A stretch of DNA of 15,143 nucleotides from an uncultured Nitrososphaerota archaeon (lineage in GTDB: Archaea; Thermoproteota; Nitrososphaeria; Nitrososphaerales; Gagatemarchaeaceae), in the NCBI GenBank assembly GCA_963718895.1, contig CAVRAG010000011.1, positions 1-15,143 on the forward strand, in the 5' to 3' direction. Within the stretch, counting starts at the first letter, position 1; every line of letters starts with the position of its first letter. The translations under genes were made by a program, and so were the position numbers. Shown one piece after another: positions 1 to 14,262 of the stretch. The notes below the pieces were generated by a model. The model was not told where the DNA came from. It ran no database searches and saw nothing but the letters and a program-made list of their open reading frames with translations.

Positions 1-246
1 TAACCGGCTGCGAAGAGTGCCGCCCATGTCGATAGCTAATAAACGGCGGTCATCTCTGCTTCCCTCCTCAATCTCCAGCAGCCGCAGCCAGAGGCTGGCC
101 TTCACAACGAAATCTTCAGCGTCTATCCAGTCGTCTTCTGTCACGATGAGTAGCTTCAGGGGCAGTGGTAGTCGACTCCTGGCGCTGAATTCTTTCAGCC
201 CCTTGATGCAAAGCCTCTTCTGAGTTTTTGAATCGAGCACCATCAT
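1..246 (-). CDS. Small hypothetical protein, open to the left edge (MMVLDSKTQKRLCIKGLKEFSARSRLPLPLKLLIVTEDDWIDAEDFVVKASLWLRLLEIEEG...)
   Basis: Hand translation of the minus strand from ATG 246 has no stop before position 1; absent from the ORF track because it has no stop codon. Divergent from the 343..1091 gene. From memory it resembles small helical proteins of archaeal integrative elements (unverified). Confidence 0.6.
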   Translation of the reverse strand, partial: MMVLDSKTQKRLCIKGLKEFSARSRLPLPLKLLIVTEDDWIDAEDFVVKASLWLRLLEIEEGSRDDRRLLAIDMGGTLRSRL

Positions 247-280
247 AGTCCCTCATTGGCTCTTGAGAAGAGCAGGACCT

Positions 281-321
281 ATTTAAGCGCTTATGACTCG
301 CCTCGTCATAGAAGCTTATAT
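281..321. promoter_or_regulatory. Divergent promoter region with palindromes
   Basis: TTATAT at 316-321 lies ~25 nt before ATG 343/346, and TTAAAT is on the minus strand at 281-286. Perfect palindrome TAAGCGCTTA (284-293) and inverted repeat TATGAC-N7-GTCATA (292-310). Confidence 0.5.
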
Positions 322-342
322 CGTTCTCTCTTCCACAGTCCC

Positions 343-1091
343 ATGATGCCGATATCAACGCTACTCGTCGATGGGAAAGAGTACCTCTACTTCTATTACA
401 ACGACCCGATGACCAATCGGAAGAAGAGCGTCTACTGCGGCCGCAGGGAAGCCCTGAAGCCGTACAGAAGGCGGAACGGTTCCAGTCGCGATATGAGAGA
501 GCCCAGAAGCAGAAGGACAGGTTCGCCGGGGTCTTAGGCCGACTATCGGCGCTGTCGGGAGAGATTGCAGGATACAGTACAGAGGAGCGGGAGTTTATCG
601 TCACGTGCCTTACCCAGACCTATCCTGACCTTTCCTGGGTCGAGAGCGACCAGATGGCGCTCTTCGGGAAGGTGAACGGGAACAAGCCGCTGGAGAGCCG
701 CCTGGCTCCTATCTACAGCAACCTGAAGGCGAGTTTGACGCGCGTTCATGACGTCACGGGGGAGCTGAGGACGCTGATCGAGTACATCGATTCTGACTGG
801 TATTATCGCGTCCAATACAGGAAGTCCGACGAGGGGAACGAAAAGCCCGAGCGGGACCCGTCTTGGAAGTATCACCTGAACGACGATCCCGAGAGCATGG
901 TGGTCGAGATTCTACGAGGGTGGCTGGATGCTTACGATCACGCGCAGAAACGACTGGATGCACTTGAGGAATTCTCTCGGGAGAGAAAACTTCAGGCGGT
1001 CATCGAGGCGTTGGCGCTCGTCGGGGTACGAAAGGCCATGAAGTATTCAAGGAAGATTATCGAAGAAGCGCTTGGTCTTGTAACTGGATGA
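343..1091 (+). CDS. Hypothetical protein of ~249 aa with an N-terminal 'GKEYLYFYY...KKSVYCG' beta-hairpin, putative DNA-binding; one frameshift
   Basis: Adding one G to the GGG run at 446-448 joins track ORF 256..537 (from ATG 343) to an open frame (GSPEAVQKAERFQSRYERAQKQK...) that continues without a stop into ORF 654..1091. Confidence 0.65.
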
Positions 1092-1175
1092 GCAATTAGC
1101 ATGAAACCATGATTCTTCATAAAGAAATATAATTCTGTGCTAACTGGCGGTCCGAATAGACCCGTGCTATCTGCA

Positions 1176-1215
1176 ACGTTCATATATACGAACATACGTT
1201 CATCTACGTGAATGT
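1176..1215 (+). promoter_or_regulatory. Tandem palindromic operator over the TATA box and start codon of the MNT-HEPN operon
   Basis: Two 20-nt units, acGTTCatatatacGAACat and acGTTCatctacgtGAATgt, each GTTC-N8-GAA(C/T). The first spacer is the TATA-like ATATATAC (1182-1189); the second arm overlaps ATG 1212. Confidence 0.7.
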
Positions 1216-1766
1216 TGAATCAGGACTTCGCCTTCATAGACAGGTTTTCTGTGGCGATACTGAGGCTTCTAAGGGTCTGATCCAATGAAGCGCTTCTACC
1301 AGAGGGAGGTGGCAAGGACTGCTGGGTGAGCGTGGGTAAGACCAACCAGGTACTGAAGGCGCTGGAAGAGAATGAACTTGTCACGAAGGAGCACGTGGGG
1401 AAGGTGGACCTCTACAAGTACAACCTGGCCGACGCTGCGGCACGTTCCCTGAAGGTGTTCTTCAACACGTCGGAGTTGAGGGTGCTGACCAAGAGCCTCG
1501 GAACACTCGATGGAACATCAAAGGTGGTTCTGTTCGGAAGCTGCGCCGAGGGAACTGACACGAAGGATAGCGATATCGACATCATCATCTTGACCCAGGA
1601 CAAGCGAGAAGCTACGGCAGCGGTTCAGCGGGCCGGACGTTCATCAAGCAGAAAGCTTTCACCGATTATTCTTGATCCACTGGAATTCAGCAGGTTGAAG
1701 AAGGACGACCTACCACTCTATGAGCAGGTCTCAAAGGGGATGACGCTTTGGCAGCGAGAGGAGTGA
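1212..1766 (+). CDS. wHTH-fused minimal nucleotidyltransferase (MntA-type antitoxin); two compensating indels in the 5' part
   Basis: GS-X10-DXD motif (FGSCAEGTDTKDSDID). The N-terminal HTH 'ILRLL(G)SDPMKRFYQREVARTAGVSVGKTNQVLKALEE' is restored by removing 1 nt near 1271-1275 and adding one G at 1324-1326. The ORF track shows only 1326..1766. Confidence 0.85.
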
Positions 1767-2227
1767 GCGCGGCACTCAAACGCCTTCTGGAACAGAGGAG
1801 ACTCCTGAAGGCAAGCTTGGGCGAGGAAGCAATCACGAAGGAGCTGGATGGGGCGACATACGACCTCCAACGTTCCAAGACCTCCCTCTCGGAGTCGGAT
1901 TACAAGTGGGCCACCATCAAGGGTTACTACTCCATGTTTCATGCGGCGAGGGCTCTTCTCTATTCGGCCGGCTACCGCGAACGAAGCCACGCCGCGTTGC
2001 TCACTGCGCTGAGGGAGTTGTACGTGAAACCGGGAACGCTGGCAGAGGACTTCTTGGATGATTTTGAGAACGCCATGAGCCTGAGAGAAGAAGCAGACTA
2101 TGCGATGAACTTCTCCGAAGACGGGTCAAGGAGGGTCGTGGGTGACGCTGGACGCTTCTTGCAAGCTGCGAAAGAATCGCTGAAATCGATGAGACAAACC
2201 AGAGACTCAGAAAGCCGAGCGGGATGA
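1763..2227 (+). CDS. HEPN domain protein (UPF0332/COG1895-like, R-X4-Y type)
   Basis: Motifs YYSMFHAARALL, SHAALL and REEADY. GTG 1763 overlaps the MNT stop (GTGA), suggesting translational coupling. Confidence 0.88.
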   Translation: MSAALKRLLEQRRLLKASLGEEAITKELDGATYDLQRSKTSLSESDYKWATIKGYYSMFHAARALLYSAGYRERSHAALLTALRELYVKPGTLAEDFLDDFENAMSLREEADYAMNFSEDGSRRVVGDAGRFLQAAKESLKSMRQTRDSESRAG

Positions 2228-2251
2228 CCGGAACCAATCGAGAAGGACGAA

Positions 2252-2347
2252 GGTCTGAGCTTCTCTGAGGATGGAGCTAAGGAGACGGTACAGGGTGCCC
2301 GCACATTCCTGACGAGAGCGAAGGTCGTTCTAAAGCTGGAAACCTGA
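2252..2347 (+). pseudogene. Orphan C-terminal helix of a second, paralogous HEPN gene
   Basis: GLSFSEDGAKETVQGARTFLTRAKVVLKLET* aligns without gaps to the HEPN end AMNFSEDGSRRVVGDAGRFLQAAKESLKSM. It is in the same frame, after the TGA at 2225-2227. Confidence 0.8.
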
Positions 2348-2402
2348 TCTCTTGCCGCTCTCGCCCTAAGGATATTACGGATCCTGTTAGCTATCGTTCC
2401 CT

Positions 2403-2600
2403 ATGAGCGTGAACGGGACATATCAGTTTGGGATTACCAACTCCTGGGGAGTGAGTAGCGTATCCCAGACCTACGACAACGTCGCCCACATTCCTCCGCC
2501 GCCGGACGAGGAGTACTTCCTGATGACCTTCTTTGGCTTGCTCGTGGTCGGGGTCTACTTCTTGGCGAAGATTTCGAGAAGGAAAAGACAATTGCATTAG
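2403..2600 (+). pseudogene. Probable 3' fragment of a C-terminally anchored surface protein
   Basis: Beta-strand-like segment (NGTYQFGITNSWG), Pro-rich linker, one TM helix and a basic tail. One extra T near 2397 extends it upstream (PKDITDPVSYRFP), but no signal peptide or 5' part is present. Confidence 0.45.
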
Positions 2601-2727
2601 GAATCAGAAAGGCTCACGGCTGTGTCTGACCAGAGGAATAGGTGGGGATGGCGCAAGTTGCAAATCCTTAGACCGAATGGATCGTTCGGATGGTTCTGAT
2701 AACCCTTCGGACTATTGAAATATCCGG

Positions 2728-3255
2728 ATGACTGACGGGCCATGCCCGCAATTGAAACTATGGATGATTGGGCTTGCCTGTGCGATTGGGCTAGCCCTTG
2801 GATTATATTTCCTAGGCGCCGGGATCTTCGACCTCTGTCATAGCATCGGGCCCATCCGGCCCAGCGCGTGTGCCTCTGGTCCTCTTTCGACGGAACAGGA
2901 TTCCTCCTTCGTAGTGATAGGAATCTCGCTCGCACTGGTCTCCCTGATAGTCCTGGTCTCAGTTGCCATAAGAGTGAGTCTCAGGGCGAGCGTCTGGGTG
3001 GTCTGGTTCGTCAGGTCAGTCTTCGTAATCGGAACATCCTTGGGAATCCTGATTTTCTTCGGCTCCTTCTCTGGTATTTGCGACCCATTTGGACCCTTTG
3101 GAACGACCGGAACGCTCTGCACCTCCTTCGACCCGTATGAAGCAATCGGGCCTTTACTCGCACTAATCTCTCTGGTCGGTTTAATCTATTCATTGAAGAC
3201 AACGAACCAACGAAGAGACGGAACAAAACTAAACAGTTCGGCCAAAAGCATTTAG
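2728..3255 (+). CDS. 4-TM membrane protein with two Cys-loop hairpins (C-x10-C, C-x12-C)
   Basis: Four hydrophobic segments. Loops CHSIGPIRPSAC and CDPFGPFGTTGTLC each lie between a TM pair. Confidence 0.75.
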   Translation: MTDGPCPQLKLWMIGLACAIGLALGLYFLGAGIFDLCHSIGPIRPSACASGPLSTEQDSSFVVIGISLALVSLIVLVSVAIRVSLRASVWVVWFVRSVFVIGTSLGILIFFGSFSGICDPFGPFGTTGTLCTSFDPYEAIGPLLALISLVGLIYSLKTTNQRRDGTKLNSSAKSI

Positions 3256-3291
3256 GATGAGAAGATTCGCATTGTTACGAAGGTCGAAACG

Positions 3292-3723
3292 ATGAACTTC
3301 TCGCGGCTCAGCCTGATACTCGTCGCGTTCGGAGCAGTCTCGTTCGTCCTGTGGGAGGAAGACGTCGCCATTCCGCTGAAACTGGCTCTGGTCTATTTCG
3401 GAGGGCTGGGAGTCTTTGGAGGCGGCCTCTTTGCCGTCATTGGCGCTCTTCAGAGGCGGAGGACTCCGAACGCGCGCTCCAACCTCCTCGTGGATGCTGG
3501 ATGGACGACGGTGTCGTTCGGACTGATAGCATCCATCGGGTCTTACCTCGTGCTGACCCAGACCAGGTGCTTTAGCCCGTTCCTGAGGGCCGGGAATTGC
3601 AATCTGGCCGGCTATTACGCGCCCATGTACGCAGGGCTCGCTTTAGCGGCGGCCGGTCTTGGCGTCGTCGTCTTCGGGAGACTTTTCAAGACGGTAGCCT
3701 CTTTGCGAAAACTCAGGCAGTGA
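3292..3723 (+). CDS. 4-TM membrane protein with a C-x9-C loop
   Basis: Four hydrophobic segments with a basic loop after TM2. CFSPFLRAGNC lies between TM3 and TM4. Confidence 0.75.
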   Translation: MNFSRLSLILVAFGAVSFVLWEEDVAIPLKLALVYFGGLGVFGGGLFAVIGALQRRRTPNARSNLLVDAGWTTVSFGLIASIGSYLVLTQTRCFSPFLRAGNCNLAGYYAPMYAGLALAAAGLGVVVFGRLFKTVASLRKLRQ

Positions 3724-3816
3724 CTTCCTTCGGTTTGGTCGTGAACAGCCTCTTCTCCTCGTCGCTGAGGAAGTGTAGAAAGGGCTCCCGTCTCCCTGAG
3801 TCCTCAACTCCAGGCC
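3713..3816 (-). pseudogene. Orphan 3' tail of a VirB4-like ATPase gene, copy 1
   Basis: Reads GLELRTQGDGSPFY(N/H)FLSDEEKRLFTTKPKEVTA* with one base added near 3774. Hand alignment gives about 54/77 identical nt with 6414-6489. Confidence 0.65.
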
Positions 3817-3859
3817 CCCGCTATTCGTCCCTCTTGCCACCAGTTGGGTCGCAATTCTC

Positions 3860-4432
3860 TCAGGAAGGCGTGTCCTGCATCTTCTTCCTGCTCATTTCCT
3901 CCAGCGCATTCAGGAGAATGTTGCCTACCGGCGTGAGCTCGTAGAGCTTCACGTTACCATAGGCGGTCTTCTCCTGCACCAGCCCGTACTTCAATAGGAC
4001 TTGGACGTGGTAGTCTATCGTGGTCCAGTCGAGCTCAAGGTCTCTGGCGAGCTGGAACCTGTCCTTCGGCGTGAGCAGCGATTTCAGGATCGTCGTCCTC
4101 GTCTCTCCACCCTTCATCTGCAGCAGGAGCTTGAACAAGCCCTGATCCAGACCTCGTCGCGACCAATTCGACTTTGCCCTCCCCCTCCATATCCACGCGC
4201 CGACTACGGCAGCCCAGCTTATCGGTACCAGCGCAATCGAGTGCGCCTGGAGTACCACCAGAGGAAGGCTGACGGGTGACGGCGAAATCGGAGTAGCTCC
4301 CGTTGAATTCGCGTTGTTCGGCGGGCCCGCCACCGGATGACCAAGCAATTGCAAGCCCAACAGCAAGGTGTTCAAGATTGCGAAGGCGAGAACCAGGTAG
4401 AGGACGATGCTGTACTTGCTCTGTCCCATCAT
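3860..4432 (-). CDS. Membrane-anchored winged-helix (ArsR-like) transcription regulator
   Basis: Two N-terminal TM helices around a Pro/Ser/Asn-rich loop, then GGETRTTILKSL...QLARDLELDWTTIDYHVQVLLKYGLV...YGNVKLYELT. Start is ATG 4432 or 4429, or GTG 4474. Confidence 0.8.
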   Translation of the reverse strand: MMGQSKYSIVLYLVLAFAILNTLLLGLQLLGHPVAGPPNNANSTGATPISPSPVSLPLVVLQAHSIALVPISWAAVVGAWIWRGRAKSNWSRRGLDQGLFKLLLQMKGGETRTTILKSLLTPKDRFQLARDLELDWTTIDYHVQVLLKYGLVQEKTAYGNVKLYELTPVGNILLNALEEMSRKKMQDTPS

Positions 4433-4477
4433 CGGTTGGTCTCGTCTCTTTTCCCGCCTAGTGATAAGAATCACGCC

Positions 4478-4741
4478 TCACTTGGGACGATTGAATCTTC
4501 CAAGAAATATCAGGCCTGAGCCGATGACGGCCAAAGAAACACCCAACCATAGAGGAAAGGAGTTCGATCCGAGATAGAATGGCAGTTGTAGATAGTATTC
4601 ACAGCCCTGAACGGGTACAGCCCCGGTAAGGTGCTCACAATCGTATACCAGCATATAAGTCTGCAAACCAAAAACGACGACAGAGACCGCGCCTACAGCT
4701 AACAATATGATACCTGAGAATTTGAGTCGGCTCTTCGTCAT
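4478..4741 (-). CDS. 2-TM hairpin protein with a C-x11-C loop (87 aa)
   Basis: TM - CEHLTGAVPVQGC - TM with basic termini. Its ATG is 1 nt after the upstream stop codon. Confidence 0.75.
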   Translation of the reverse strand: MTKSRLKFSGIILLAVGAVSVVVFGLQTYMLVYDCEHLTGAVPVQGCEYYLQLPFYLGSNSFPLWLGVSLAVIGSGLIFLGRFNRPK

Positions 4742-4742
4742 T

Positions 4743-5087
4743 TCAAGGCCGCTCTGCGAGGTTTTGCAAAGCCTTTGGCTGGTTGCTCGTCTTCGTAGGT
4801 TCGGATGGTCGTCGCACTATGTCAAGAAAGAATACAAGTGCGAAAGCAATTCCCGCCCAGAATAGGTAGTCCAGTGAGATGAGGCTCACATCATAAGAAA
4901 ATCCGCATCCGTTGAACGGGTTAGGAGTCCTACAGGGAGAGATTGGTGCGCTGTAGGTCAAAGGAAATCCATTGGAGGAGCCTTCGGGGGTCAGAGTTGC
5001 AAACGCGCTAAGGCCGAGAAACACCAAGCCCACAAGGCAGGCGGTGATAATCAACCGGGGCCTAACATCCATGTCTATCCCAACCAA
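4743..5087 (-). CDS. 2-TM hairpin protein with a GFPL motif and C-x8-C loop
   Basis: TM - GFPLTY...CRTPNPFNGC...DYLFW - TM. Start is TTG 5087 or ATG 5072. Confidence 0.75.
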   Translation of the reverse strand: MVGIDMDVRPRLIITACLVGLVFLGLSAFATLTPEGSSNGFPLTYSAPISPCRTPNPFNGCGFSYDVSLISLDYLFWAGIAFALVFFLDIVRRPSEPTKTSNQPKALQNLAERP

Positions 5088-5110
5088 CTTGACAAGAATC
5101 CGCGTTCATG

Positions 5111-5118
5111 TTATATAA
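5111..5118. promoter_or_regulatory. Palindromic TATA box TTATATAA between divergent genes
   Basis: Self-complementary octamer, 24 nt from TTG 5087 (-) and upstream of GTG 5155 / ATG 5170 (+). Confidence 0.55.
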
Positions 5119-5154
5119 TTTGTCCAGAGTCGTCAGGAATAACCCCATTAGACG

Positions 5155-5742
5155 GTGGAACCGCCCCAAATGCAGCTGACGAAATTGAAGAAGAACGCAG
5201 GAGTTGCTACGGCCGTTGTCGCGTTGATTGCCTTGATCGTAATTGGCGGGGCTACGGCAGCCTTTGTGTTGACAATGCAACCAAGTCCAGCCTCATCCGC
5301 GACCTCTAGCTCGACAACCATTCCTTCCCTCGATAGCACTCAGTCAACTGGAAGCGTCACTTCGAGTACATCGTGCAATCAACCACCTTATCTCGTCAAG
5401 CTTGCCTCCCAGGTCGAGCAAACACAGAACTTCACCCAGCAATCGCGCGGCCTGAGCTACGTGCTGGCATATGGCGACAATCAGAGCGCCGAAACGGGAA
5501 CAGTGAACGGCAAACCAACCTACTCTCTACCCGAGACAAGTTTGGCGTTCTACTCCTACGGCACAACTTCAACTGCGGTTTGCTCCTACAATGTTGGGAC
5601 TGAGGGCGTTGTCGGAGCCCTCTGGGTCCAAGTCCCAATCAACGCCGACGGTTCCTATGACCTCGCTAACATGTCCATCTACTTCACGCCCGGAGTCTTC
5701 TCCAACAGCACGTCAATCACTCAATCGACCAGCAGCGTCTAG
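5155..5742 (+). CDS. N-terminally anchored Ser/Thr-rich surface (glyco)protein
   Basis: Basic KLKKNAG followed by a long hydrophobic helix, a Ser/Thr linker, and a domain with two Cys and N-x-S/T sequons (NFT, NQS, NMS, NST). Start may be ATG 5170. Confidence 0.8.
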   Translation: MEPPQMQLTKLKKNAGVATAVVALIALIVIGGATAAFVLTMQPSPASSATSSSTTIPSLDSTQSTGSVTSSTSCNQPPYLVKLASQVEQTQNFTQQSRGLSYVLAYGDNQSAETGTVNGKPTYSLPETSLAFYSYGTTSTAVCSYNVGTEGVVGALWVQVPINADGSYDLANMSIYFTPGVFSNSTSITQSTSSV

Positions 5743-5804
5743 TCGATAACTTCAGATTTCGAAAGAAATCGCATGAATACGTGGATTACGTAATTTTGTG
5801 GATC

Positions 5805-5861
5805 TTTCTTCGACTTACTGAACAATCTTCTCTCTTCGCGTGAAAGCCTTACTAACCAGGG
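5805..5861 (-). pseudogene. More diverged orphan VirB4-like tail, copy 3
   Basis: PWLVRLSREERRLFSKSKK versus PFY.FLSDEEKRLFTTKPK. Same strand and same relative position (convergent to a + strand cargo gene) as the other copies. Confidence 0.45.
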
Positions 5862-5884
5862 CCTCGGCAAATGCAAAGAGGAAC

Positions 5885-6294
5885 TTGAAGCCACATTCGT
5901 TGATTGCTCTCTTGATTGCTCTGGGGTATCCGTCCTCGCTGGTTTCGAGTTCATCTTTTTCGGAAATGAGATTCTGGGTCCCTTCCTGGTTCTCACCAGC
6001 GCGATTGTCACGCTGGCCGCCATTAGGCCGCATTGGAAAACGCCGTCGACCTCACTCGGGCTTGCCGTTTTTCTGGGCGGGACATTTGCATCTCTCTATC
6101 TAATCTTCGGTAGGTGCGCTCCTGAGGGCGGACTTCTTCCAAGCGGGGTGTGCTACATTTACACTTCGAACAATCTGTGGTTTGCCACCGACTCCGTCGT
6201 CGCACCCCTGTTGGGCATTGTCGTTCTTGTCGCAGGTCAGATCAAGATGAGTCGGAGACAATCCTACTCGCAAAAATTCAGTTCGCTAACTTGA
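5885..6294 (+). CDS. Hidden 4-TM membrane protein (~136 aa) with a C-x11-C loop; one frameshift
   Basis: TTG 5885 gives MKPHSLIALLIALG; adding one G at 5923-5926 continues VSVLAGFEFIFFGNEILGPFLVLTSAIVTLAAIRPHWKTPSTSLGLAVFLGGTFASLYLIFGRCAPEGGLLPSGVCYIYTSNNLWFATDSVVAPLLGIVVLVAGQIKMSRRQSYSQKFSSLT*. Not in the ORF track. Confidence 0.72.
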
Positions 6295-6418
6295 TGAAAC
6301 GGCGAATCCCAGAGTTAGCGAGGCCAGTTCCTTCAATATCCTTTGCATAATCCTTATTGGGGCGAAGGCGTCATGGAAACCTCTTTCTGAACAGGCCCCT
6401 AAGAAATCCTATCAAAAC

Positions 6419-6574
6419 TCAAGCGGTGACTCCCTTCGGCTTCGTGGTGAAAGTTTCCTCTCCGCGTCACTCGAAAAATTATAGAATGGAAGCGTCCTCT
6501 TGGGTCACTAGAATTCCCTGTCCTATCTTCGCATTTACGACGAACTTCCACTCTCCATCGCCGAGTTCGTTCAC
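6419..6574 (-). pseudogene. Orphan 3' tail of a VirB4-like ATPase gene, copy 2 (longest), abutting the integrase stop
   Basis: NELGDGEWKFVVNAKIGQGILVTQEDA/PFYNFSSDAERKL/FTTKPKGVTA* with indels near 6490 and 6450-6452. It fits the L..GE..F...A..G(E/Q)G.L...S..E..L.TT.P pattern I recall for VirB4-like ATPase C-termini. Confidence 0.7.
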
Positions 6575-7881
6575 GTTGGAAGTTTAACCACAACCTCCGA
6601 GTCCGGTAGCTGCGCGACATACTCCCATCCTTGGCTGACGTGCGACTTCAACTCGCTGGCCGGGATTATCTTCTGCCTGTTCCCGTTGTTGGTCATGACC
6701 CCGAGCAACCTCCGACGCAACAGGTCCTGGAAGTCTTCGTTGGTCATCTTGTTTAGGTCCAGCTTCTCGAGTTCCTCTTCCTTGGCGCCTGCCGCAAGAA
6801 GCAGCTGCTCCCTGAGCACGTTCTTCAGGTTCTCTTGGGATATTCCCTTCTGCTTCTCAGTGGACAGAAGAGGCTCGCACTTCCTGTAAGCGTCTCGCAT
6901 CTTCTCTATAGCGTCCTGGGTTATCCCCTTGTTCACGGTGTACGTCGCTTCGATATCTCCCACGTGGCCCATCCAGAATTCCCTCCAATCTCTTATGATC
7001 AGGCCGTCTCCCTCGGCCATCATCATCCTAACGTCGAAGTATCTGCGCAGGACGTAGGGCCGCCAATCGAACCCCGCCTTCCTGATCGGTTTCCTGATGA
7101 TGTCTCCAATGTTTATCGAGGTGATATGCTTGCGCCCCACATCTTCAGGCCTGACGTACTTTCCCTTCCTCTCGTGGAACGTGATCACCGGCGATTCTGG
7201 TAGGAGGTCTTCTCCCTTTCGCAATCTCCACTCTAGATATTCTTGTAAATATTGACAGCCCTCCTGCGCCAAAAATGTGAAGTACTGATGACCGGCCTTG
7301 CTGAGGGTCTTCCTTGCGATCACCATGGTCGGCATCTTCGTTACGATTACCTTGCCGTTCTCGACCTTGACCTCGGGGAGGTCTTTCATCTTCAGGCCGT
7401 CGTCACCCGTGTAGTTACCGAGGACCTCGATACGGCACCCGCCAAAAGCGACCAGCGAGCAGGCGACCTTCGCCCTCAACTCCGCGGCGTTGAGTATCTT
7501 CTTCAGCTCTTCTTGCGTCGGCGGCCTTTCGTTCTCCACCTTCGTGGGCTGTGACCGCGGTATCTTGATTGCCCTCGTGATCTGGGTATCGTTCCAGGCC
7601 AGCCAGCTCTTCAACGGCTTCACGATGTTGGAGATGTAATTCCCGCTCCTCCCCTCCTTCTCAAGCGTTCCAATCACATCCAAGAGGAAGTCCGTGGCTT
7701 GCTTCTGGCTCATCTTAGCGATCTTTTGCGGTGTCGTCTCGAACCTCGCGCAGACGAATCCTATCCTGCGGAACCATTCCTGGGCGGTGACGAGGCTCCC
7801 TCTCGTCACGTTGTCGTACCATCTCCGGAAGTCCTTGTCATCGAGCATCTGCTTGTACTTCGAGCGTCCTAGGTCCTTCAT
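6571..7881 (-). CDS. Tyrosine recombinase / site-specific integrase (436 aa, intact)
   Basis: Catalytic set: R in GGCRIEV, YVLRRYF (Y at the first position of HxxR), WMGH and Tyr in EATY. N-terminal core-binding-like region and a ~90-aa C-terminal extension. Adjacent to a tRNA. Confidence 0.93.
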   Translation of the reverse strand: MKDLGRSKYKQMLDDKDFRRWYDNVTRGSLVTAQEWFRRIGFVCARFETTPQKIAKMSQKQATDFLLDVIGTLEKEGRSGNYISNIVKPLKSWLAWNDTQITRAIKIPRSQPTKVENERPPTQEELKKILNAAELRAKVACSLVAFGGCRIEVLGNYTGDDGLKMKDLPEVKVENGKVIVTKMPTMVIARKTLSKAGHQYFTFLAQEGCQYLQEYLEWRLRKGEDLLPESPVITFHERKGKYVRPEDVGRKHITSINIGDIIRKPIRKAGFDWRPYVLRRYFDVRMMMAEGDGLIIRDWREFWMGHVGDIEATYTVNKGITQDAIEKMRDAYRKCEPLLSTEKQKGISQENLKNVLREQLLLAAGAKEEELEKLDLNKMTNEDFQDLLRRRLLGVMTNNGNRQKIIPASELKSHVSQGWEYVAQLPDSEVVVKLPT

Positions 7882-7890
7882 CGCGCCCTA

Positions 7891-7919
7891 GTTACGCTAG
7901 ATTCGCGTATAAACGTAAC
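7891..7919 (-). promoter_or_regulatory. Integrase promoter: TATA box inside an inverted repeat
   Basis: TTTATA on the minus strand at 7913-7908, 27-32 nt before ATG 7881, bracketed by GTTACG (7891-7896) and CGTAAC (7914-7919). Confidence 0.6.
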
Positions 7920-7937
7920 GGTTGTGAACTAAGTTGA

Positions 7938-8034
7938 TGGTGGGGCCGGTGAGATTTGAACTCACGGTCGCCTGCACTTTGGCCCGCTACCGGGCCCCCA
8001 AGCAGGAATCTTGACCATACTAGACTACGGCCCT
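7938..8034 (-). tRNA. tRNA-Pro(GGG) with encoded CCA and a 19-nt intron
   Basis: Hand-folded cloverleaf: acceptor GGGCCG/CGGCCC, D stem GTCT/AGAT, anticodon stem CCTGC/GCAGG, loop TT-GGG-G|T (anticodon at 7999-7997), T arm GTGAG-TTCAAAT-CTCAC, ACCA end. Confidence 0.95.
7977..7995 (-). other. Canonical 37/38 tRNA intron forming a bulge-helix-bulge
   Basis: Intron GCCCGGTAGCGGGCCAAAG. TTGG (32-35) pairs with CCAA, bulges are GG|G and AG|T, and the outer helix is CCCG/CGGG with a GTAG loop. Confidence 0.92.
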
Positions 8035-8246
8035 AGTATGCGGGGCCTTTACGACACGGGTTCTTGTTCTTTTCTGATGAGATTGACACCATAGATCGCC
8101 GCCGGCTTGGGCCTGGGGTGCGGTGGAGGATTGAGTAGAGGCATCGTCGACAGAGATGGTATCGGAACGCCCAGTGCACCAAGGAACGAATCCGTCGTTT
8201 ACAGGCACAGGTTTTAGTAACCCTGAGCGCATCCACTCCGATCACC

Positions 8247-8597
8247 TTGCCTGATGACTACGTTGGCATCGGAAAAGGCGAGAGGGTGCTCGTCAGCCAA
8301 CCCAAAGTTGTTCCTGACAGGCTCCTCGAGAATCTCTCGACAGCTTTCAAGTCCAACGGAGATGTCGAAGAGGCCTTCTTTGGCCAGATTGACCTCGCCT
8401 CAAGACCTGACGGCTCCCACCTACTAGTTCAGGTGAAGTTTCGAGAGAGTTCCAAAGGAGGTCTGGCTTCTCTCGATTCAAGCATCAGAAGGGCTATCGA
8501 AGGTTCGCCCGGATTAGAATCGCCCGTGGATTTCGCGGTGGTGACTGACGGGCCATACCCTGGGACTAGGAGTTTCTACAAGCGCGAAGGCTTCTGA
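8247..8597 (+). CDS. Stand-alone SseB C-terminal-domain-like protein
   Basis: Pattern 'GERVLVSQPKVVPDRLLENLSTAF...VEEAFFGQI...HLLVQV' recalls SseB_C; 116 aa. Recognised by eye only. Confidence 0.6.
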   Translation: MPDDYVGIGKGERVLVSQPKVVPDRLLENLSTAFKSNGDVEEAFFGQIDLASRPDGSHLLVQVKFRESSKGGLASLDSSIRRAIEGSPGLESPVDFAVVTDGPYPGTRSFYKREGF

Positions 8598-8650
8598 CCA
8601 GAGACAGCGTCGCTCACACTCCTTAAATCGAGCGGACCGAATTCCGGCCC

Positions 8651-9646
8651 GTGGTCTATTTCATTCTGTCCGACGACCTCACGGGAGCAGCCGGGGTCGC
8701 GTCGATGGTGGACCGCTCAGCCGCCGTCGCTGTGAATCTGGACAGGTTTGACCGGAAGCTCGCCGGGGAGTTCGCCTGCATCGTCCTGAACCTGGAGATT
8801 CGGGAGAAGACCGGCGCGGAGGCAGCCCGGAGGCTTTCGCGGGCTATCGACGCCGTCGGCGAGAACCCGGTGGCGGTCAGGATGGACAGCGCGCTGCGGG
8901 GTCGCTTGCAGATGCTCGTGGGGACGATGCTCGAGAGGGGGAACGTACTGGTCACAGACACCATTCCCGAGTATGAGAGGCGCACGGTGTCAGGCAAGAC
9001 GTTCATCGGCCCTCAGCAGGGAGACATCGGCTCTCTGCTCTCTCCGCTGCGAGGCAAGTGGAAGGACCGGAGCATCACCATCGCCGATTCCGAGACCTAT
9101 GAAGACCTCGACGCCCTGGCCCAACGTTGCATCGCGGATGGTCTGATTCCCGTCGATCCGGGTCCGCTCGTGGCGAGGGTGGCCCGGGGCAGGCTCGGGC
9201 TTGGCGCGCCTGCCCTTCGCAGGGCTGGCAGGGAGGTCTCGAAAGTGGCCTTCGTGGTGGGCACCAGGGATCCCAGGAGCCTTGAGCAGGTCCGCCACAT
9301 GCGCAGCCTCGGGTTCCCGGTGCAGAAGCCCTGCGTCAAGAGTGCCGATGGGGTGGACGTCTTCTCGTTCTCCATTGGGAAGGAAGGACCTCTCGTGACG
9401 CGGGCTTTCCTGAATCATCTGACACACTACGACGCGCTGGTCCTCAGCGGCGGCGCCACGGCCAACTTCGTCCTCGAGCGATCCGGATTCAGCTATCTGG
9501 TGAGCGAGGGAGAGGTGCAACCGCTCGTCTCATCGAGCAGGGTGAAGGGGGGCCTGTTCGACGGGAAGACGGCGGTTCTGAAAGGAGGGTTTATCGGCGA
9601 CGAAGACGCGTACAAGACGATCTTGGACTGGTTGAGAAGAGAATGA
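8651..9646 (+). CDS. Four-carbon acid sugar kinase family protein (DUF1537; DtnK/OtnK-like)
   Basis: DDLTGA, DSALRG, IADSET, SGGATA and LKGGFIG motifs. ATGA overlap with pdxA. TTAAAT at 8623-8628 upstream. Confidence 0.85.
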   Translation: MVYFILSDDLTGAAGVASMVDRSAAVAVNLDRFDRKLAGEFACIVLNLEIREKTGAEAARRLSRAIDAVGENPVAVRMDSALRGRLQMLVGTMLERGNVLVTDTIPEYERRTVSGKTFIGPQQGDIGSLLSPLRGKWKDRSITIADSETYEDLDALAQRCIADGLIPVDPGPLVARVARGRLGLGAPALRRAGREVSKVAFVVGTRDPRSLEQVRHMRSLGFPVQKPCVKSADGVDVFSFSIGKEGPLVTRAFLNHLTHYDALVLSGGATANFVLERSGFSYLVSEGEVQPLVSSSRVKGGLFDGKTAVLKGGFIGDEDAYKTILDWLRRE

Positions 9647-10590
9647 TCGGGGTAACACTCGGCGACCCGGCGGGCATTGGCCCCGAGATAGTCGCAAAGT
9701 CCCTACCGAGCCTCAAGAGAGAGCAGCTGGTCCTGATAGGCAATCACGAGAACTTCCTGCGCGTCCTGTCCGACCTCCGCCTCGACGAGAAGAAGATCCG
9801 CGGCTACTCGTTCGTCGACATCCCAGGGGAGGGGGTGACCTACGGCCGCGTCCAGAAGGCGGCGGGGCAGATCGCCGTCCGGAGCATCGAGAAGGCGGTA
9901 GAGATGGCGATCAAAGGCGAGGTCGAGTCGATATCGACCGCCCCCATAAACAAGGAGGCGATAATGATGGCAGGATCGAAGTACGTAGACCACACGGCTA
10001 TGCTCTCCGGCCTCACTGGCTCGAGGGAGAACTTCACGGTCTTCGAGACGGGCGCGCTGCGCATCTTCTTCATGACCAAGCACGTCTCCCTCTCGAAGGC
10101 TCTCGTACAGATCACGAGGAAGCGCGTGCGCTCCTCGATCTTCGAAGCGAACGAGTCCCTCGCCATGCTCGGCGTGAAACGAAGGAGGATCGCCGTGGCT
10201 GCGCTGAACCCGCACGGGGGCGACGGAGGGCTCTTCGGGAGGGAGGAGATCGAGACGATAGCGCCGGCCATCAGGGACGCACAGAAGGAGCTGGACGTCT
10301 CCGGACCCTACCCAGCAGACTCCGTCTTCCACAGAGCCTCCGAGGGGGCGTTCGACATCGTCGTCGCGCTCTATCACGACCAGGGCCACATAGCGGCCAA
10401 GATGCTCGACTTTCACCGGACGGTGAGCCTTAACCTCGGCCTGCCGTTCCTGAGGACCTCGGCCGACCATGGGACGGCGTTCGACATCGCGGGGAAGGGT
10501 CTGGCCAACCCGGTGAGCATGGTCGAGGCCGTCAAGAAGGCCGCCAAGTATGGAAGGAGCTACCGGGCGAGGCGCGCCGAGCTCAGATGA
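9643..10590 (+). CDS. pdxA: 4-hydroxythreonine-4-phosphate / D-threonate-4-phosphate dehydrogenase (PdxA2-type context)
   Basis: GDPAGIGPE, TAPINKE, DHT, LNPHGGDGGLFG, YHDQGH and RTSADHGTAFDIAGKG. Confidence 0.95.
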   Translation: MIGVTLGDPAGIGPEIVAKSLPSLKREQLVLIGNHENFLRVLSDLRLDEKKIRGYSFVDIPGEGVTYGRVQKAAGQIAVRSIEKAVEMAIKGEVESISTAPINKEAIMMAGSKYVDHTAMLSGLTGSRENFTVFETGALRIFFMTKHVSLSKALVQITRKRVRSSIFEANESLAMLGVKRRRIAVAALNPHGGDGGLFGREEIETIAPAIRDAQKELDVSGPYPADSVFHRASEGAFDIVVALYHDQGHIAAKMLDFHRTVSLNLGLPFLRTSADHGTAFDIAGKGLANPVSMVEAVKKAAKYGRSYRARRAELR

Positions 10591-11359
10591 CTATCCCGAC
10601 GGTCTTCAGCAGGCCTGCGTAGTTTCCGTCTGACCTGTCCCTCTTGTACTCCTTCAGCGCCTCGAGGACCGCTTCCTGCCTCCTGATTCCCACGAGCCGC
10701 TTGACGAACGGGGCGCACCTCCCGCCGATGAGCAGGTACTGAGACGCCGTCGTGACGTTCTTCGGCGCTCTCCTCTGGCTCGCGGACTCGAAGTCGATGA
10801 TGTAGGGGATGTCGCCCGCCATGATCACGTGCTTTCTCAGGTCGCTGAGCTGGCCGTGGTCCAGGTCGATGAGGTCAAGCTTCCTGCACTGGTTCAGCAG
10901 CAGGTGCAGTATCTCGCGGGCCCGACCTCTCTTCCCCACCCCGCTTATCGATCTTAGGTGTTCCTCAAGGTCCTCGCCTTCGACCAGCTGCATGACCATG
11001 AAGTCCCTCGTCGCTGCGAAGGCCTGCGCGCCGACTCCGACCCTGTTCGCGATCTCGGTGAGCCTGAACTCCTCGAGCATGCTCTCCCTGTTGGCGTCGG
11101 TGCGCCTTATCTTCAGGGCATGGACCCTCCCATCGATTATCCCTCTGACGACCACGCTCACGGTGCCGATGCCGACGAGACCGAGCCTGCCTATCTTCGT
11201 CCTTCCCTCGAAGACGACCTCCTCGACTCCCAGCACTCCGAGCTGATCTATCCTGGACCGCGCCGCCTTCAGGTCCAGGCTGGGATAGGTGAGGACGTTG
11301 AGGTAAGGAGTCCTCGCGAACTCGTCCAGCCTAATCCGTTCCGATGCTGTCTGCGACAA
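10583..11359 (-). CDS. Archaeal RIO-like Ser/Thr kinase (COG2112-like)
   Basis: GIGTVSVV, ALKIRR, E...ANRVGVG, DHGQLS and IIDFESAS. Lies directly downstream of cca. Confidence 0.85.
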   Translation of the reverse strand: MSQTASERIRLDEFARTPYLNVLTYPSLDLKAARSRIDQLGVLGVEEVVFEGRTKIGRLGLVGIGTVSVVVRGIIDGRVHALKIRRTDANRESMLEEFRLTEIANRVGVGAQAFAATRDFMVMQLVEGEDLEEHLRSISGVGKRGRAREILHLLLNQCRKLDLIDLDHGQLSDLRKHVIMAGDIPYIIDFESASQRRAPKNVTTASQYLLIGGRCAPFVKRLVGIRRQEAVLEALKEYKRDRSDGNYAGLLKTVGIVI

Positions 11360-12666
11360 ATTCCTTTACTCCCTCGTCCAGCCATCCCTCCTCCGCCATC
11401 TCGCGGAGGATAGCCCTACCGGTCACGACTCTACCGCTCTTCCGGATGGCGGCGGCCACCTCGTGCGAGGCCCCCACCCTGTCAATCTCCGACGAGCGGA
11501 GCCCGGCGAGCAGGCTCTCCAGCTCGGTCTGCTTCCGTTCCTGGAGCAGGTGCACCTTCCCGTCCTCTCCGACCCAGACGAGCTCCGACCTAGCCCTGTT
11601 CTTCGAGATGAACCTCTTGACCTCCGCCGGCATCTCGACGCCCGGCCCGACACGCTCCTCCAGATCTGAGAGGCGTTCAGTCCCCGGGAGCAGTATTATG
11701 GCGCTCCTGTCAGAGTTGTTTGAGGCGGCTGAGGCCCTGATCGATCCTGAAGCCACGTTCCTCGGCGTACCTCACCAGCTGCTTCGTGCTCCTCTTGAGC
11801 TCTCCCCAGAGCGTGTCCTCGCTGAGGGGCCTGTGGTCGAAGCGGACCACATAGAGCCTCCCGACGAGGGCCCTCCTGACGCTTCTCCTGATGCCCGTGA
11901 AGTATGCGAGGTCCGGCCCCTCGAGGAAGGCTCTTGAGGCGAGGGTCATCTTCGCCACCGTCTCCCTGGAGATCGCCCTGGCGAGCTCTCGATCCATGTC
12001 GATTGGGTCCTTCAGGCTCAGGAGCGTCTCTCCGGCTGGTTTCAGGTCAGCGAAGAAGCGGAGGACCCCCTCGAAGCCGCCGTGATTGTGGACGAGCACC
12101 TCGGCCGCGTACCCGCTGAAGCCCTCGTTCTCAATCTCGGCTCCGTAGACCCCGACCGTCTTCATGAAGAGCTTCAGGAGCCTGACCTGCGTCCTCCTCT
12201 CCTCGTCCAGGTTTCTCTTCACGAACTCGACGTGGTACGGAGACCTGTCCGCGGCGCTCCTCCACTCTCCCGGCCTGACGTCGTAGCAGGGCACGATGTT
12301 CACCTTGACTCCGTCGACGGTCGCCTCCGTGTACGGGTGCTGGGCGTACTTCTTCCCGTGTCGGTACCCGCGGGCCGCTTCCCTGCCTACCTTGAGTCCG
12401 ACCGCCTCGAATCTCTCGCCGTCCGAATCTTCGGCGAATCTCAGGAAGACGTCGATGTCGGCTTCACCGCCCACGCGAGGAGACAGCCACGTCCCCTTCG
12501 CGAACGAACCACCCAGGATCACATCCTTGATCTCCCCGAAGGGAAGCGAAGCGGCCTCCACCTTCTTGAGGACCTTCTTGGCCACGCGATTGAGCCTGAC
12601 CTCTTCCTGAGGGCTCGGGATGACCCTCCTCCCCGCTTTCAAGAGGACGCTCTGGAGCTTTGTCAC
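11331..12666 (-). CDS. cca: Archaeal class I CCA-adding enzyme; one frameshift near 11742
   Basis: GGSFAKGTWL...DIDVF, YAQHPY, SAADRSPYH and GFSGY. Track ORFs 11710..12666 and 11331..11756 join as ...EERGFRI/IRASAASNN... Confidence 0.93.
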
Positions 12667-13225
12667 CCTAGAGCGTACTCCTTCACATCGGTGTATGTGG
12701 GACCGGCAGACGAGAGCACGCTCGATTTTAGCTTCAGGCTGGTTATCCTCGTCCCCCCGAGGTCACGACGGGAGTTCGACTGGAGGAGCGAGGTCAGAGC
12801 CCCGCTGTTGAGAGGGCTCCTCACTCTGGCCAGCGTAATGTGAGGGTGAAAGTCGTGGTCCTCCGGTTTCCCGACCCCTTCGAGGGCGGCGATGAAGGCC
12901 GAGGCGACACTGTTGATTGCCTGTTCGTTTTCGCGGGCGACACCGGCCCAGACGACCCTCGGCCGCCTCGGGTCAGGGAATGCACCGATCCCTCTCACGA
13001 GAACGTCGAAGCTGGACAACCTCAGTCCGCTGAGCCTTCTGTCTACCTCCTTAACTGTGTCCTCCGAGACCTCTCCCAGGAACTTCACCGTGAAGTGGAG
13101 GTTGTCCCTTCCGACGACGTTCAGATCTGCCGCGTGTCCTCTTGAGCTCCTCCTCGACGATCAGCAGCTTCTCGACGACTTCCTGCGAGACCTCAAATGC
13201 GAGAAATGCGCGCGTTCGTCTTCAC
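12663..13225 (-). CDS. thpR: RNA 2',3'-cyclic phosphodiesterase (2H family, 2'-5' RNA ligase); indels near 13130 and 13215
   Basis: The N-terminus RAFLAFEVSQEVVEKL is in an adjacent frame. Two HxT motifs (HFTVKF, HITLAR), plus GAFP...PRVVWAGV and GPTY. Confidence 0.9.
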
Positions 13226-13250
13226 CGCTGCTGCTTGCTCTCCCGGCGCG

Positions 13251-13284
13251 TTATTAAGCAGAATCCATTGAAAGACGCTTATTA
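13251..13284. promoter_or_regulatory. Divergent TATA-like boxes for the thpR-cca-kinase and P-loop kinase-DUF54 units
   Basis: TTAATAA (-) at 13257-13251, 26-32 nt from GTG 13225, and TTATTA (+) at 13279-13284 upstream of ATG 13317, in a GC-rich background. Confidence 0.5.
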
Positions 13285-13316
13285 CCACCCCTCCGACGGC
13301 GCTGAGGCATACCAAG

Positions 13317-13874
13317 ATGTTGATCATAGCCATCACAGGGATGCCAGGGGCTGGCAAGTCCACGGTGGCGCAGGCGCTGGGCGGGATCGGGCTGAGGAGG
13401 ATCGCGATGGGGGACATGATTCGGGAAGAGACCGGCCGGAGGGGTCTCCCGCTCGACGACAAGAACATGGGGATGGTGATGAAGGAGCTGAGGGGCACCT
13501 ACGGCGCCGGAGCGGTCGCCGAGCTCTGCCTCCGCAGCATCCAGTCGAAGGAAGGCGAGGCGGCGGTCGTGGTAGACGGGATAAGGTCGGTCGCGGAGAT
13601 AGAGATCTTCAGGAACGCAGGAGAGGTGAAACTGCTGGCCGTCCTCGCCTCCCCGAAGAGGAGGTTCGAGCTTCTCACCGCCAGAGGGCGGACCGACGCC
13701 CCTCCGGACCTCGAGAGCTTCAGAGCCAGGGACGAGAGGGAGCTGTCCATCGGGATAGGGAACGCGATATCTCTGGCCGACGAAGCGATCGTGAACGAGC
13801 ACATCACTCCCGACGAGCTGACCGACGTGGCGCTCAGTATCGCGGCCGGATGGATGAAGCCGCTTGGAAGATAG
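13317..13874 (+). CDS. UPF0200 / dephospho-CoA-kinase-like P-loop kinase
   Basis: GMPGAGKS Walker A, MGDMIRE, VVDGIRS, RGRTD and RDERELSIGIG. Confidence 0.88.
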   Translation: MLIIAITGMPGAGKSTVAQALGGIGLRRIAMGDMIREETGRRGLPLDDKNMGMVMKELRGTYGAGAVAELCLRSIQSKEGEAAVVVDGIRSVAEIEIFRNAGEVKLLAVLASPKRRFELLTARGRTDAPPDLESFRARDERELSIGIGNAISLADEAIVNEHITPDELTDVALSIAAGWMKPLGR

Positions 13875-14262
13875 CCCGGCGGTCGTCATCGTCCTCCACG
13901 CGGCGGTCTCACCCAGCGAGGATCCCGCGAAGGTCCTGGCGGCGGCGCAGAACGTCCTAGGGGAGTGCGCACACAGCGTCGAAGAGGGGGAGGCAGGGGT
14001 CACTCTCCGCTCGGCTGACCTGAACTGCCTCCGGAAGGTCCACGACCAGCTGAGGGACAGGCACGTGAGGGCTGCCGCGAACAGGCTCCTCCTGCGGATG
14101 CGAGACGGCCGAAGGGTGACGGTCCTCCTCAACAGACAGGCTGCGACGGCGGGTGTCGTGGCGCTGTGCACCAGCGCCACCGAGTCGCCGCTGGGCCCTC
14201 TCGTCCTGGAGATTGAGAGCGACAACCCTGAACGAGTGATCGACTGGCTGACCGTCTACTGA
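13864..14262 (+). CDS. DUF54 / UPF0201 putative RNA-binding protein
   Basis: PSEDPAKV, LNRQAA..G, ESPLGP and C-terminal IDWL. Usual neighbour of UPF0200. Confidence 0.85.
   Translation: MEDSPAVVIVLHAAVSPSEDPAKVLAAAQNVLGECAHSVEEGEAGVTLRSADLNCLRKVHDQLRDRHVRAAANRLLLRMRDGRRVTVLLNRQAATAGVVALCTSATESPLGPLVLEIESDNPERVIDWLTVY

Follow-up and report, generated by a model that had tools for sequence, protein, structure and literature searches.

Diverged copies of a VirB4-like gene end beside a tRNA-Pro gene: probable scars of stacked integrative-conjugative elements in an uncultured Nitrososphaerota archaeon

This work concerns a 15,143-nt stretch of DNA from an uncultured Nitrososphaerota archaeon (contig CAVRAG010000011.1 of assembly GCA_963718895.1), which is the entire contig, here called C11 or the window. 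An initial annotation, made from the letters alone, had pointed out a diverged repeat on its minus strand, and the two copies, termed stub A and stub B here, lie in an island next to a tRNA-Pro(GGG) gene (Table 1). Our analyses suggest that both copies are probably non-functional scars, consisting of the last 25-50 codons of VirB4-like ATPase genes, each of which was left by a different integrative-conjugative element (ICE), and that these elements were stacked at this site and eroded.

Results and Discussion

The repeat consists of two diverged ends of one kind of gene

When positions 3701-3815 were compared with the whole window by blastn, there was a single non-self match, 3708-3783 to 6414-6489, whose 77 alignment columns contain 16 mismatches and 2 gaps (76.6% identity, E = 3.9e-10). 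By Smith-Waterman alignment, the repeat scored 37, while 1901 random windows of the same contig averaged 8.4 and reached at most 16, and both analyses confirmed that the repeat is real. The similarity had initially been given as about 70% (54 of 77 nucleotides, ungapped); the similarity stands, and since the gapped alignment gives 76.6% over 77 columns, this figure is a slight underestimate. In the reading frame of a full-length paralogue on contig C8, the six differences between the last 11 codons of A and B are five synonymous third-position changes and one second-position change (GAA/GGA), so that the five of six counted initially hold on recount. Over the last 24 codons, 21 differences are distributed 2, 6 and 13 over the first, second and third codon positions, in addition to two single-base gaps, and over the last 28 codons, third positions account for 15 of 24 differences (p = 0.003).

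The homology ends 5 nt past the TGA (GTTTT in both), where it had been placed before, and the sequence beyond is GTTTTCGCAAAG in copy A and GTTTTGATAGGA in copy B. Upstream, the T-Q-x-D that the two copies had been said to share is present as RTQGDG in A and VTQEDA in B. Two points of the initial annotation had to be revised. Copy B does not stop at 6506 but extends to approximately 6574, up to the stop codon with which the upstream integrase gene ends, and the 51-residue peptide derived from it is not an open frame, as B requires two frame corrections. Copy A contains a 1-nt deletion, and a stop codon stands ahead of the copy. Neither copy is part of a complete open reading frame (ORF) with an ATPase domain, and frameshifted tails alone remain.

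The parent gene is VirB4-like

An unaltered 34-aa open piece of stub B, used in a six-frame search of its own genome, matched the extreme C-terminus of a 688-codon ORF on contig C8 (E = 4.7e-8). The gene (C8:1178839-1180782), which is the sole full copy in the genome, encodes a protein of 647 aa ending in ...FYNFLSDEERRLFTTKPKEVTA before the stop codon. The VirB4-like assignment had been a guess, and several results now support it. The C8 protein contains the P-loop NTPase motifs GQSGFGKST and VVDEGW (the latter read within IVVDEGW), which we take to be Walker A and Walker B, respectively, and it matches 4ag5_A, the solved VirB4 C-terminal domain in the PDB (E = 9.1e-13, residues 467-624 versus 226-373), as well as the NCBIfam models VirB4_plasma (6.1e-32), CD1110 (7.1e-24), TraC (1.8e-20, spanning residues 453-645) and VirB4_CagE (5.3e-12). 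The NCBIfam scores of 45-110 bits are all far below the curated cut-offs of 325-643, and therefore the protein is called VirB4-like rather than a certified family member; Pfam gave nothing but P-loop_TraG (E = 0.0013). Furthermore, a gene for an 808-aa VirD4/TraG-like coupling protein is located 5.3 kb upstream (TraG-D_C, 3.7e-7; T4SS-DNA_transf, 1.3e-6; CD1115 VirD4-like, 2e-10). Close relatives come from metagenome-assembled genomes (MAGs) labelled Ca. Gagatemarchaeum stordalenia and from other Nitrososphaerota. These sequence comparisons support a VirB4-like conjugation ATPase as the presumed parent gene of both stubs.

Stubs A and B are 77% identical to each other, and they are 84% and 74% identical to the C8 gene, respectively. 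Stub A groups with the lineage of C5b, the downstream copy on contig C5, and of L028, a single long stub, and their flanks are common at 81-82%. L028 is 77% identical to stub B, while its last 90 nt and downstream genes are 82% identical to stub A and its flank. The 77% identity between A and B, the split between their lineages and the third-position bias support the earlier proposal that the copies came from two different, once-functional paralogues rather than from a recent duplication, and A and B thus appear to derive from two different VirB4-type genes that once worked.

VirB4 tail stubs are common in this genome and its relatives

When the genome was searched by tblastn with this 647-aa query, the results were the one complete gene and strong partial matches only to residues 584-647. 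These matches are at nine places, two each on C11, C5 and C4, one on C9, and two overlapping pieces on C8 that belong to a single stub; four weaker matches to other parts of the protein (E = 0.002 to 9.1) were set aside. By our own reading, seven of the eight stubs carry frameshifts or stops. A VirB4-like match was present in 25 of 61 genomes of the family, and the 76 rows of matches represent 63 loci, although some pieces lie at contig ends and the genomes, being related, are not independent of each other. Of these loci, 30 are short C-terminal stubs that begin at or beyond residue 569 and 19 are complete or nearly complete genes; the rest are six longer C-terminal remnants, six N-terminal pieces, one internal piece and one internally deleted relic. 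In this relic (G042:C98:18035-18255), residues 43-91 are fused to residues 619-647 by an internal deletion whose end point is that of the short stubs. When public protein sets were searched with the last 60 aa encoded by the C8 gene, the VirB4 tail was matched by 64 short ORFs (38-100 aa), which have varied, unrelated N-termini and in many cases come from contigs of 0.5-3 kb. Stubs of the VirB4 tail are unusually common in this archaeal family, while scars of this kind are otherwise known. The possibility that VirB4 is split by integration, in analogy to SSV-type integrases, was rejected, as no remnant covering residues 1 to ~595 was found among the 63 loci.

Cargo between two convergent backbone genes

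In the intact C8 element, a second backbone gene, which encodes a 666-aa secreted protein, is convergent to VirB4. The 3' block of this gene is found again, 1-5 kb past VirB4 3' ends, in C8, C4, C9, C5, L014, L015, L016, L020, L025, L028 and L030, and stub A and the stub of the 666-aa gene flank the same two membrane-protein genes in C11, C5 and L028. Cargo flanked by the 3' stubs of two convergent genes agrees with a history in which the backbone was lost and the cargo region survived. In the scenario that we favour, ICE-derived elements would have integrated successively at or beside the attachment (att) site of the tRNA-Pro gene, their conjugation backbones would then have been deleted, and the variable cargo between the two convergent backbone genes would have persisted, bracketed by their 3' ends. 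We assume that erosion would be progressive and limited by the adjoining convergent cargo genes. In addition, an arriving element might now and then, through homologous recombination at its VirB4 3' end, overwrite a stub and swap the DNA downstream of it.

As for the second scar in its own right (2361-2600), the 666-aa protein has a hydrophobic tail, and approximately 80% of the residues are conserved.

Several observations weigh against the interpretation of the stubs as scars. Nearly all remnants comprise at most the last 65 codons, which random deletion alone does not predict, and protein-level searches may pick up the well-conserved C-terminus more readily than N-terminal pieces. Three stubs that are joined to an integrase gene in the same way (see below) diverge in a coding-like manner, which is not expected from pure neutral decay after one truncation. 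A core-motif search of the window detected no att core past stub A or B. Finally, the genome is a MAG with 80.5% completeness and 5.4% contamination, in which C9 and C11 represent one locus. A hypothetical refreshment of stubs by visiting elements through recombination or gene conversion would explain the third-position periodicity, and also why the joint is conserved and why the DNA past the stop codon is unrelated.

The integrase gene and its joint with stub B

The 436-aa integrase had no Pfam match at E <= 0.01. Its N-terminal core-binding domain resembles that of archaeal XerA (NF040815, E = 2.1e-8, residues 49-156; PDB 4a8e, E = 3.3e-4), and residues 51-436 are homologous to a C8 paralogue bearing PF00589 (27% identity, E = 4e-31). 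Comparison with the copy in the related genome G038 (L034:6821-8131) gave a ratio of nonsynonymous to synonymous substitutions (dN/dS) of 0.05, with dS 0.98 and a proportion of synonymous differences (pS) of 0.55, so that synonymous sites are ~45% identical. The integrase is thus under strong purifying selection despite the reduction of the surrounding element to a stub, and it may be domesticated or still active. The joint between the integrase gene and the stub is shared by C11, C9 and G038, with the integrase stop codon overlapping a start codon (GTGA in C11, in which GTG is the first codon of stub B; ATGA in C9 and G038). The three stubs linked to this integrase have 70-80% mutual identity versus ~45% at the synonymous sites of the integrase, and third positions hold 27 of 43, 23 of 41 and 22 of 38 of their differences (56-63%, p = 7e-5 to 2e-3). 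All of them are broken in the VirB4 frame, each differently.

The overlapping start codon and the coding-like divergence of the three linked stubs could indicate a small gene, in which a VirB4-tail peptide of ~50 residues, translationally coupled to the integrase, might interfere with incoming conjugation machines. The start codon in C11 opens the VirB4 frame for 32 codons, and the 64 short ORFs in public databases might be counted in favour of such a gene. However, those ORFs start at many points, have unrelated N-termini and often come from the short contigs mentioned above, and the start codon in C9 and G038 reads another frame after codon 4. A current gene of this kind was rejected, as all three integrase-linked copies are broken; it is also made unlikely by the disruption of seven of the eight stubs in this genome, and we regard the small-gene explanation as highly improbable.

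It is even harder to credit that the conserved 75 nt represent a structured RNA, or a terminator for convergent cargo genes. An inverted repeat of 7-8 bp, AACTTCCT ... AGGAAGTT, with its arms 39 nt apart, occurs in the majority of copies, and a convergent membrane-protein gene ends within stub A. However, RNAalifold on 19 copies gave -6.7 kcal/mol with a covariation term of -0.07 and a compensatory change in one of 17 pairs, Rfam found the tRNA alone, and the variation tracks codon positions. Covariation of a structured RNA had been named initially as an observation that would speak against a protein-coding origin, and RNAalifold and Rfam revealed no such structure in these copies; on these grounds and on the codon-position pattern, a structured RNA was rejected.

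Attachment cores, alleles and stacking

In L014, a tRNA-Pro-like core, GTTC(A/G)AATCTCACCGG, is located 24-25 nt past the stop codon both after the full VirB4 gene and after a downstream stub, and C9 has a decayed copy of the core at the equivalent place past the stub stop. By pattern, such a core follows the VirB4 stop in three of 24 copies (L014 twice and C9), and in L025, a 24-nt tRNA-Pro 3' end was read by eye at +26. In some relatives, VirB4 is thus the final gene ahead of the att core. Past the first core of L014, positions 4178-4224 match the tRNA end and the integrase-side arm of the window (83%), and the two cores enclose a 3.3-kb unit that has no integrase gene and is bordered by the integrase-side arm on one side and by a stub on the other. 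In G038, stacking is seen directly, as tRNA-Pro is followed by a 6.2-kb cargo block, a second 22-nt tRNA 3' fragment and the same integrase and stub. In the window, a second tRNA 3' end was not found, the 28-mer occurring once with up to 3 mismatches allowed. The units in the window are not bounded by direct repeats of the att core, which are present in G038, L014 and L025 and decayed in C9, and site-specific stacking in the window is therefore inferred from the relatives.

In Streptococcus thermophilus, ICEs accrete in tandem at one site with integrase-less, att-flanked, cis-mobilisable derivatives (CIMEs). The relics described here resemble these in that the backbone is lost and the cargo kept, and the two-core unit of L014 fits this arrangement; unlike them, they are archaeal, any mobilisation of them would be hypothetical, and the window contains no recognisable flanking cores. 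They are also similar to the arrays of partial tRNA genes or att remnants at integration hot spots, where stacked, progressively decayed repeats record successive integrations, but here it is not the host target that is repeated but the coding end of the final gene of the element itself.

Fragments of tRNA-Pro 3' ends without a VirB4 stub are located at C3:56650-56991, C3:61363-61705 and L034:6640-6830, and two of them have the upstream motif AACGAAAGTGT(A/G)CTGGTCGAATCTCACCG in common. Therefore, another element family also uses this att site.

Contig C9 is 99.6-100% identical to C11 over window positions 7912-13952 and 76-89% identical leftwards over the integrase gene and the stub, and the two are unrelated directly past the stub stop codon. 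C9 is an alternative assembly of the C11 locus, and the assembly bubble also involves C6 (window 6419-13952 versus C9 and 11134-15143 versus C6). Identical host DNA with two different islands at tRNA-Pro indicates that at least two strains with different versions of this locus are combined in the bin.

These results have to be considered for another explanation, which we find rather unlikely but give more weight than the other alternatives, namely that the stubs are retained as functional DNA. In this case, the final 75-200 nt of VirB4 would act as an arm of the att site or as a homology handle, the tRNA, integrase and stub would form a landing pad that captures cargo, and derivatives with an integrase alone or without one may have to keep the stub for excision, integration or mobilisation. 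This would account for the cores 24-26 nt past the stop in L014 (twice), L025 and C9, for the architecture of the integrase-less L014 unit with the arm and the stub at its ends, and for the maintenance of the integrase-stub unit in three loci with an integrase dN/dS of 0.05. It is also consistent with the 85%-identical versions of this unit in C9 and C11 within a nearly identical host background, which switch at the tRNA end, with the different DNA past the stop codon in all three integrase-linked loci, and with the better conservation of the stub than of the integrase synonymous sites. In contrast, the 5' limits of the stubs spread from about codon 569 to 624 with no single point, the stubs contain indels, and stub B lacks the 8-bp inverted repeat that most copies have. 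The codon-periodic conservation of the integrase-linked stubs is unlike that of protein-binding DNA, and in L038 a 90%-identical integrase is located at tRNA-Pro without any stub. Furthermore, stub-less elements occupy tRNA-Pro cores (C3 and block X of G038), and neither stub in the window has a core after it. We consider it unlikely, to a somewhat greater degree, that the tRNA-Pro, integrase and VirB4-stub unit is a long-lived capture platform that repeatedly swaps in the cargo of visitors by means of an att arm or homology handle, in which case each event may refresh the stub from a working VirB4 gene. If true, this would amount to an archaeal, integron-like collecting of genes, and it would account for the excess of stubs over complete VirB4 genes in this family.

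Insertion into the 3' end of VirB4

In E. coli, prophages e14 and 21 duplicate the 3' end of icd, and e14 supplies a working replacement end for the host gene. The repeat in the window is similar in being a diverged direct repeat of the last codons of a protein gene with mainly synonymous differences; unlike at icd, neither copy in the window is in an intact gene. By analogy, cargo modules might insert specifically into the 3' end of VirB4 carrying their own copy of the gene end, with the short downstream copy being the displaced original. In five of five tandem cases (C11, C5, L014, L015 and L029), the upstream copy is long or complete and the downstream copy is 24-28 codons long, and L028 resembles the unoccupied site of the arrangement in C11 and C5. 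Moreover, in the passages of PMC6563490 considered here, 14 of 68 thaumarchaeal integrated elements target 3'-distal parts of protein genes. However, a tRNA-proximal element that is simply younger would give this asymmetry as well, the inserted segments have neither an integrase nor a common gene set, and the 3' stub of the second backbone gene on the far side of the cargo is not predicted. The upstream copy should be the one resembling L028, but the last 90 nt and downstream genes of L028 are 92% identical to C5b versus 77% to C5a, the upstream copy, and therefore the two copies in C5 come from different lineages. The e14 model failed this test and is disfavoured, and we judge it very unlikely. 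An MFS and regulator cargo together with its flanking VirB4 sequences has the same end points in L015, L029 and L031; from the sequences, this recurrence reads as one relic that was inherited or copied rather than as a cassette with precise ends.

Relation to described archaeal elements

Krupovic et al. (2019, PMC6563490) describe, in the passages considered, integrative-conjugative elements of Thaumarchaeota with a VirB4/TrbE and VirD4/TraG pair and variable cargo, which integrate by tyrosine recombinases into the 3'-distal part of tRNA genes, one site being re-used so that arrays are formed. The elements analysed here are similar in their ATPase pair (on C8), presumed integration at a tRNA gene by an integrase-like tyrosine recombinase, probable site re-use and variable cargo. 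They differ in that the window holds relics alone and that recurrent scars of the VirB4 3' end are not described in those passages of that paper. The host, a soil archaeon and a relative of Ca. Gagatemarchaeum, is not among the genomes named there.

If both stubs are scars of stacked elements, the left 8 kb of the contig could be annotated as a patchwork of integrative-conjugative elements that have decayed at tRNA-Pro, and the VirB4 tail could provide a simple marker for such relics in non-ammonia-oxidising Nitrososphaerota of peat and soil. The excess of stubs, the bracketing by two genes and the coding-like divergence bear on how archaea may retain cargo while the transfer machinery is discarded.

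Anatomy of the island

The GC content is 0.50-0.59 across positions 1-8400 and 0.60-0.68 further right, which makes the left 8 kb a low-GC island. On the minus strand from the tRNA, the order is tRNA-Pro, integrase, stub B, cargo, stub A, cargo, the 3' stub of the second backbone gene and a nucleotidyltransferase (MNT)/HEPN pair (Table 1).

Table 1. Features of the island at the tRNA-Pro gene, listed from the tRNA leftwards (window coordinates)
Feature	Position	Strand	Basis or remarks
tRNA-Pro(GGG), 97 nt	7938..8034	-	ARAGORN; Rfam tRNA, 49.5 bits
Integrase-like tyrosine recombinase, 436 aa, intact; start 57 nt past the tRNA	6571..7881	-	Homology
Stub B, VirB4-like codons ~598-647 and stop (TGA 6419-6421); 2-nt and 1-nt deletions	6419..6574	-	Sequence comparison with C8 gene
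Stub-B-linked cargo, 2.6 kb	3860..6418	.	ORF list
ORF, secreted-looking	5155-5742	+	Stub-B cargo
ORFs, small membrane proteins	4743-5087, 4478-4741	-	Stub-B cargo
Membrane-anchored winged-helix protein, many paralogues (tblastn)	3860-4474	-	Weak Pfam winged helix-turn-helix (wHTH) matches
Stub A, VirB4-like codons ~616/621-647 and stop (TGA 3713-3715); 1-nt deletion in Asn codon	3713..3810	-	Comparison with C8 gene
Two membrane-protein genes convergent to stub A, stub-A-linked cargo	3292-3723, 2728-3255	+	ORF list
3' stub of second backbone gene, ~78 codons, two in-frame stops	2361..2600	+	Translation aligned with C8 protein C-terminus
MNT/HEPN pair, distal island	1326..2227	+	Pfam NTP_transf_2/Polbeta, HEPN

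The tRNA-Pro gene is the integration target of the island, at its attL side, and its length of 97 nt suggests an intron. In the tRNA-Pro copy of G032 (L035), a further insertion is apparent in the 5' half. A Pfam search with 26 ORFs of the window gave nothing for the integrase and only weak wHTH matches for the cargo between the stubs. The DNA past stub B is unrelated to that past the stub in C9 and G038. Both flanks of stub A have homologous counterparts in C5, and the downstream flank has one in L028 as well. The two membrane proteins of the stub-A cargo, the gene at 3292-3723 overlapping the stub by 11 nt, have 69-79% protein identity to genes past the stubs in C5 and L028. The products of the MNT/HEPN pair are 94.5% and 88% identical to those of a pair at L027:4479-5336, near another VirB4 remnant in a different MAG, and the pair travels with these VirB4 relics.

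Two minor observations concern the rest of the contig. A 19-nt direct repeat (2729-2747 and 8542-8560, 18 of 19 identical, 5.8 kb apart) encloses most of the island and the tRNA; it looked like a candidate island boundary, and its only further copy in the genome is the allelic site in C9. The gene for the CCA-adding enzyme (11331-12666, minus strand) is split over two frames, with residues 1-308 of the 444-aa G032 orthologue corresponding to 12666-11743 and residues 309-444 to 11741-11334, which points to a frameshift or an assembly error near 11742, where C9 is identical.

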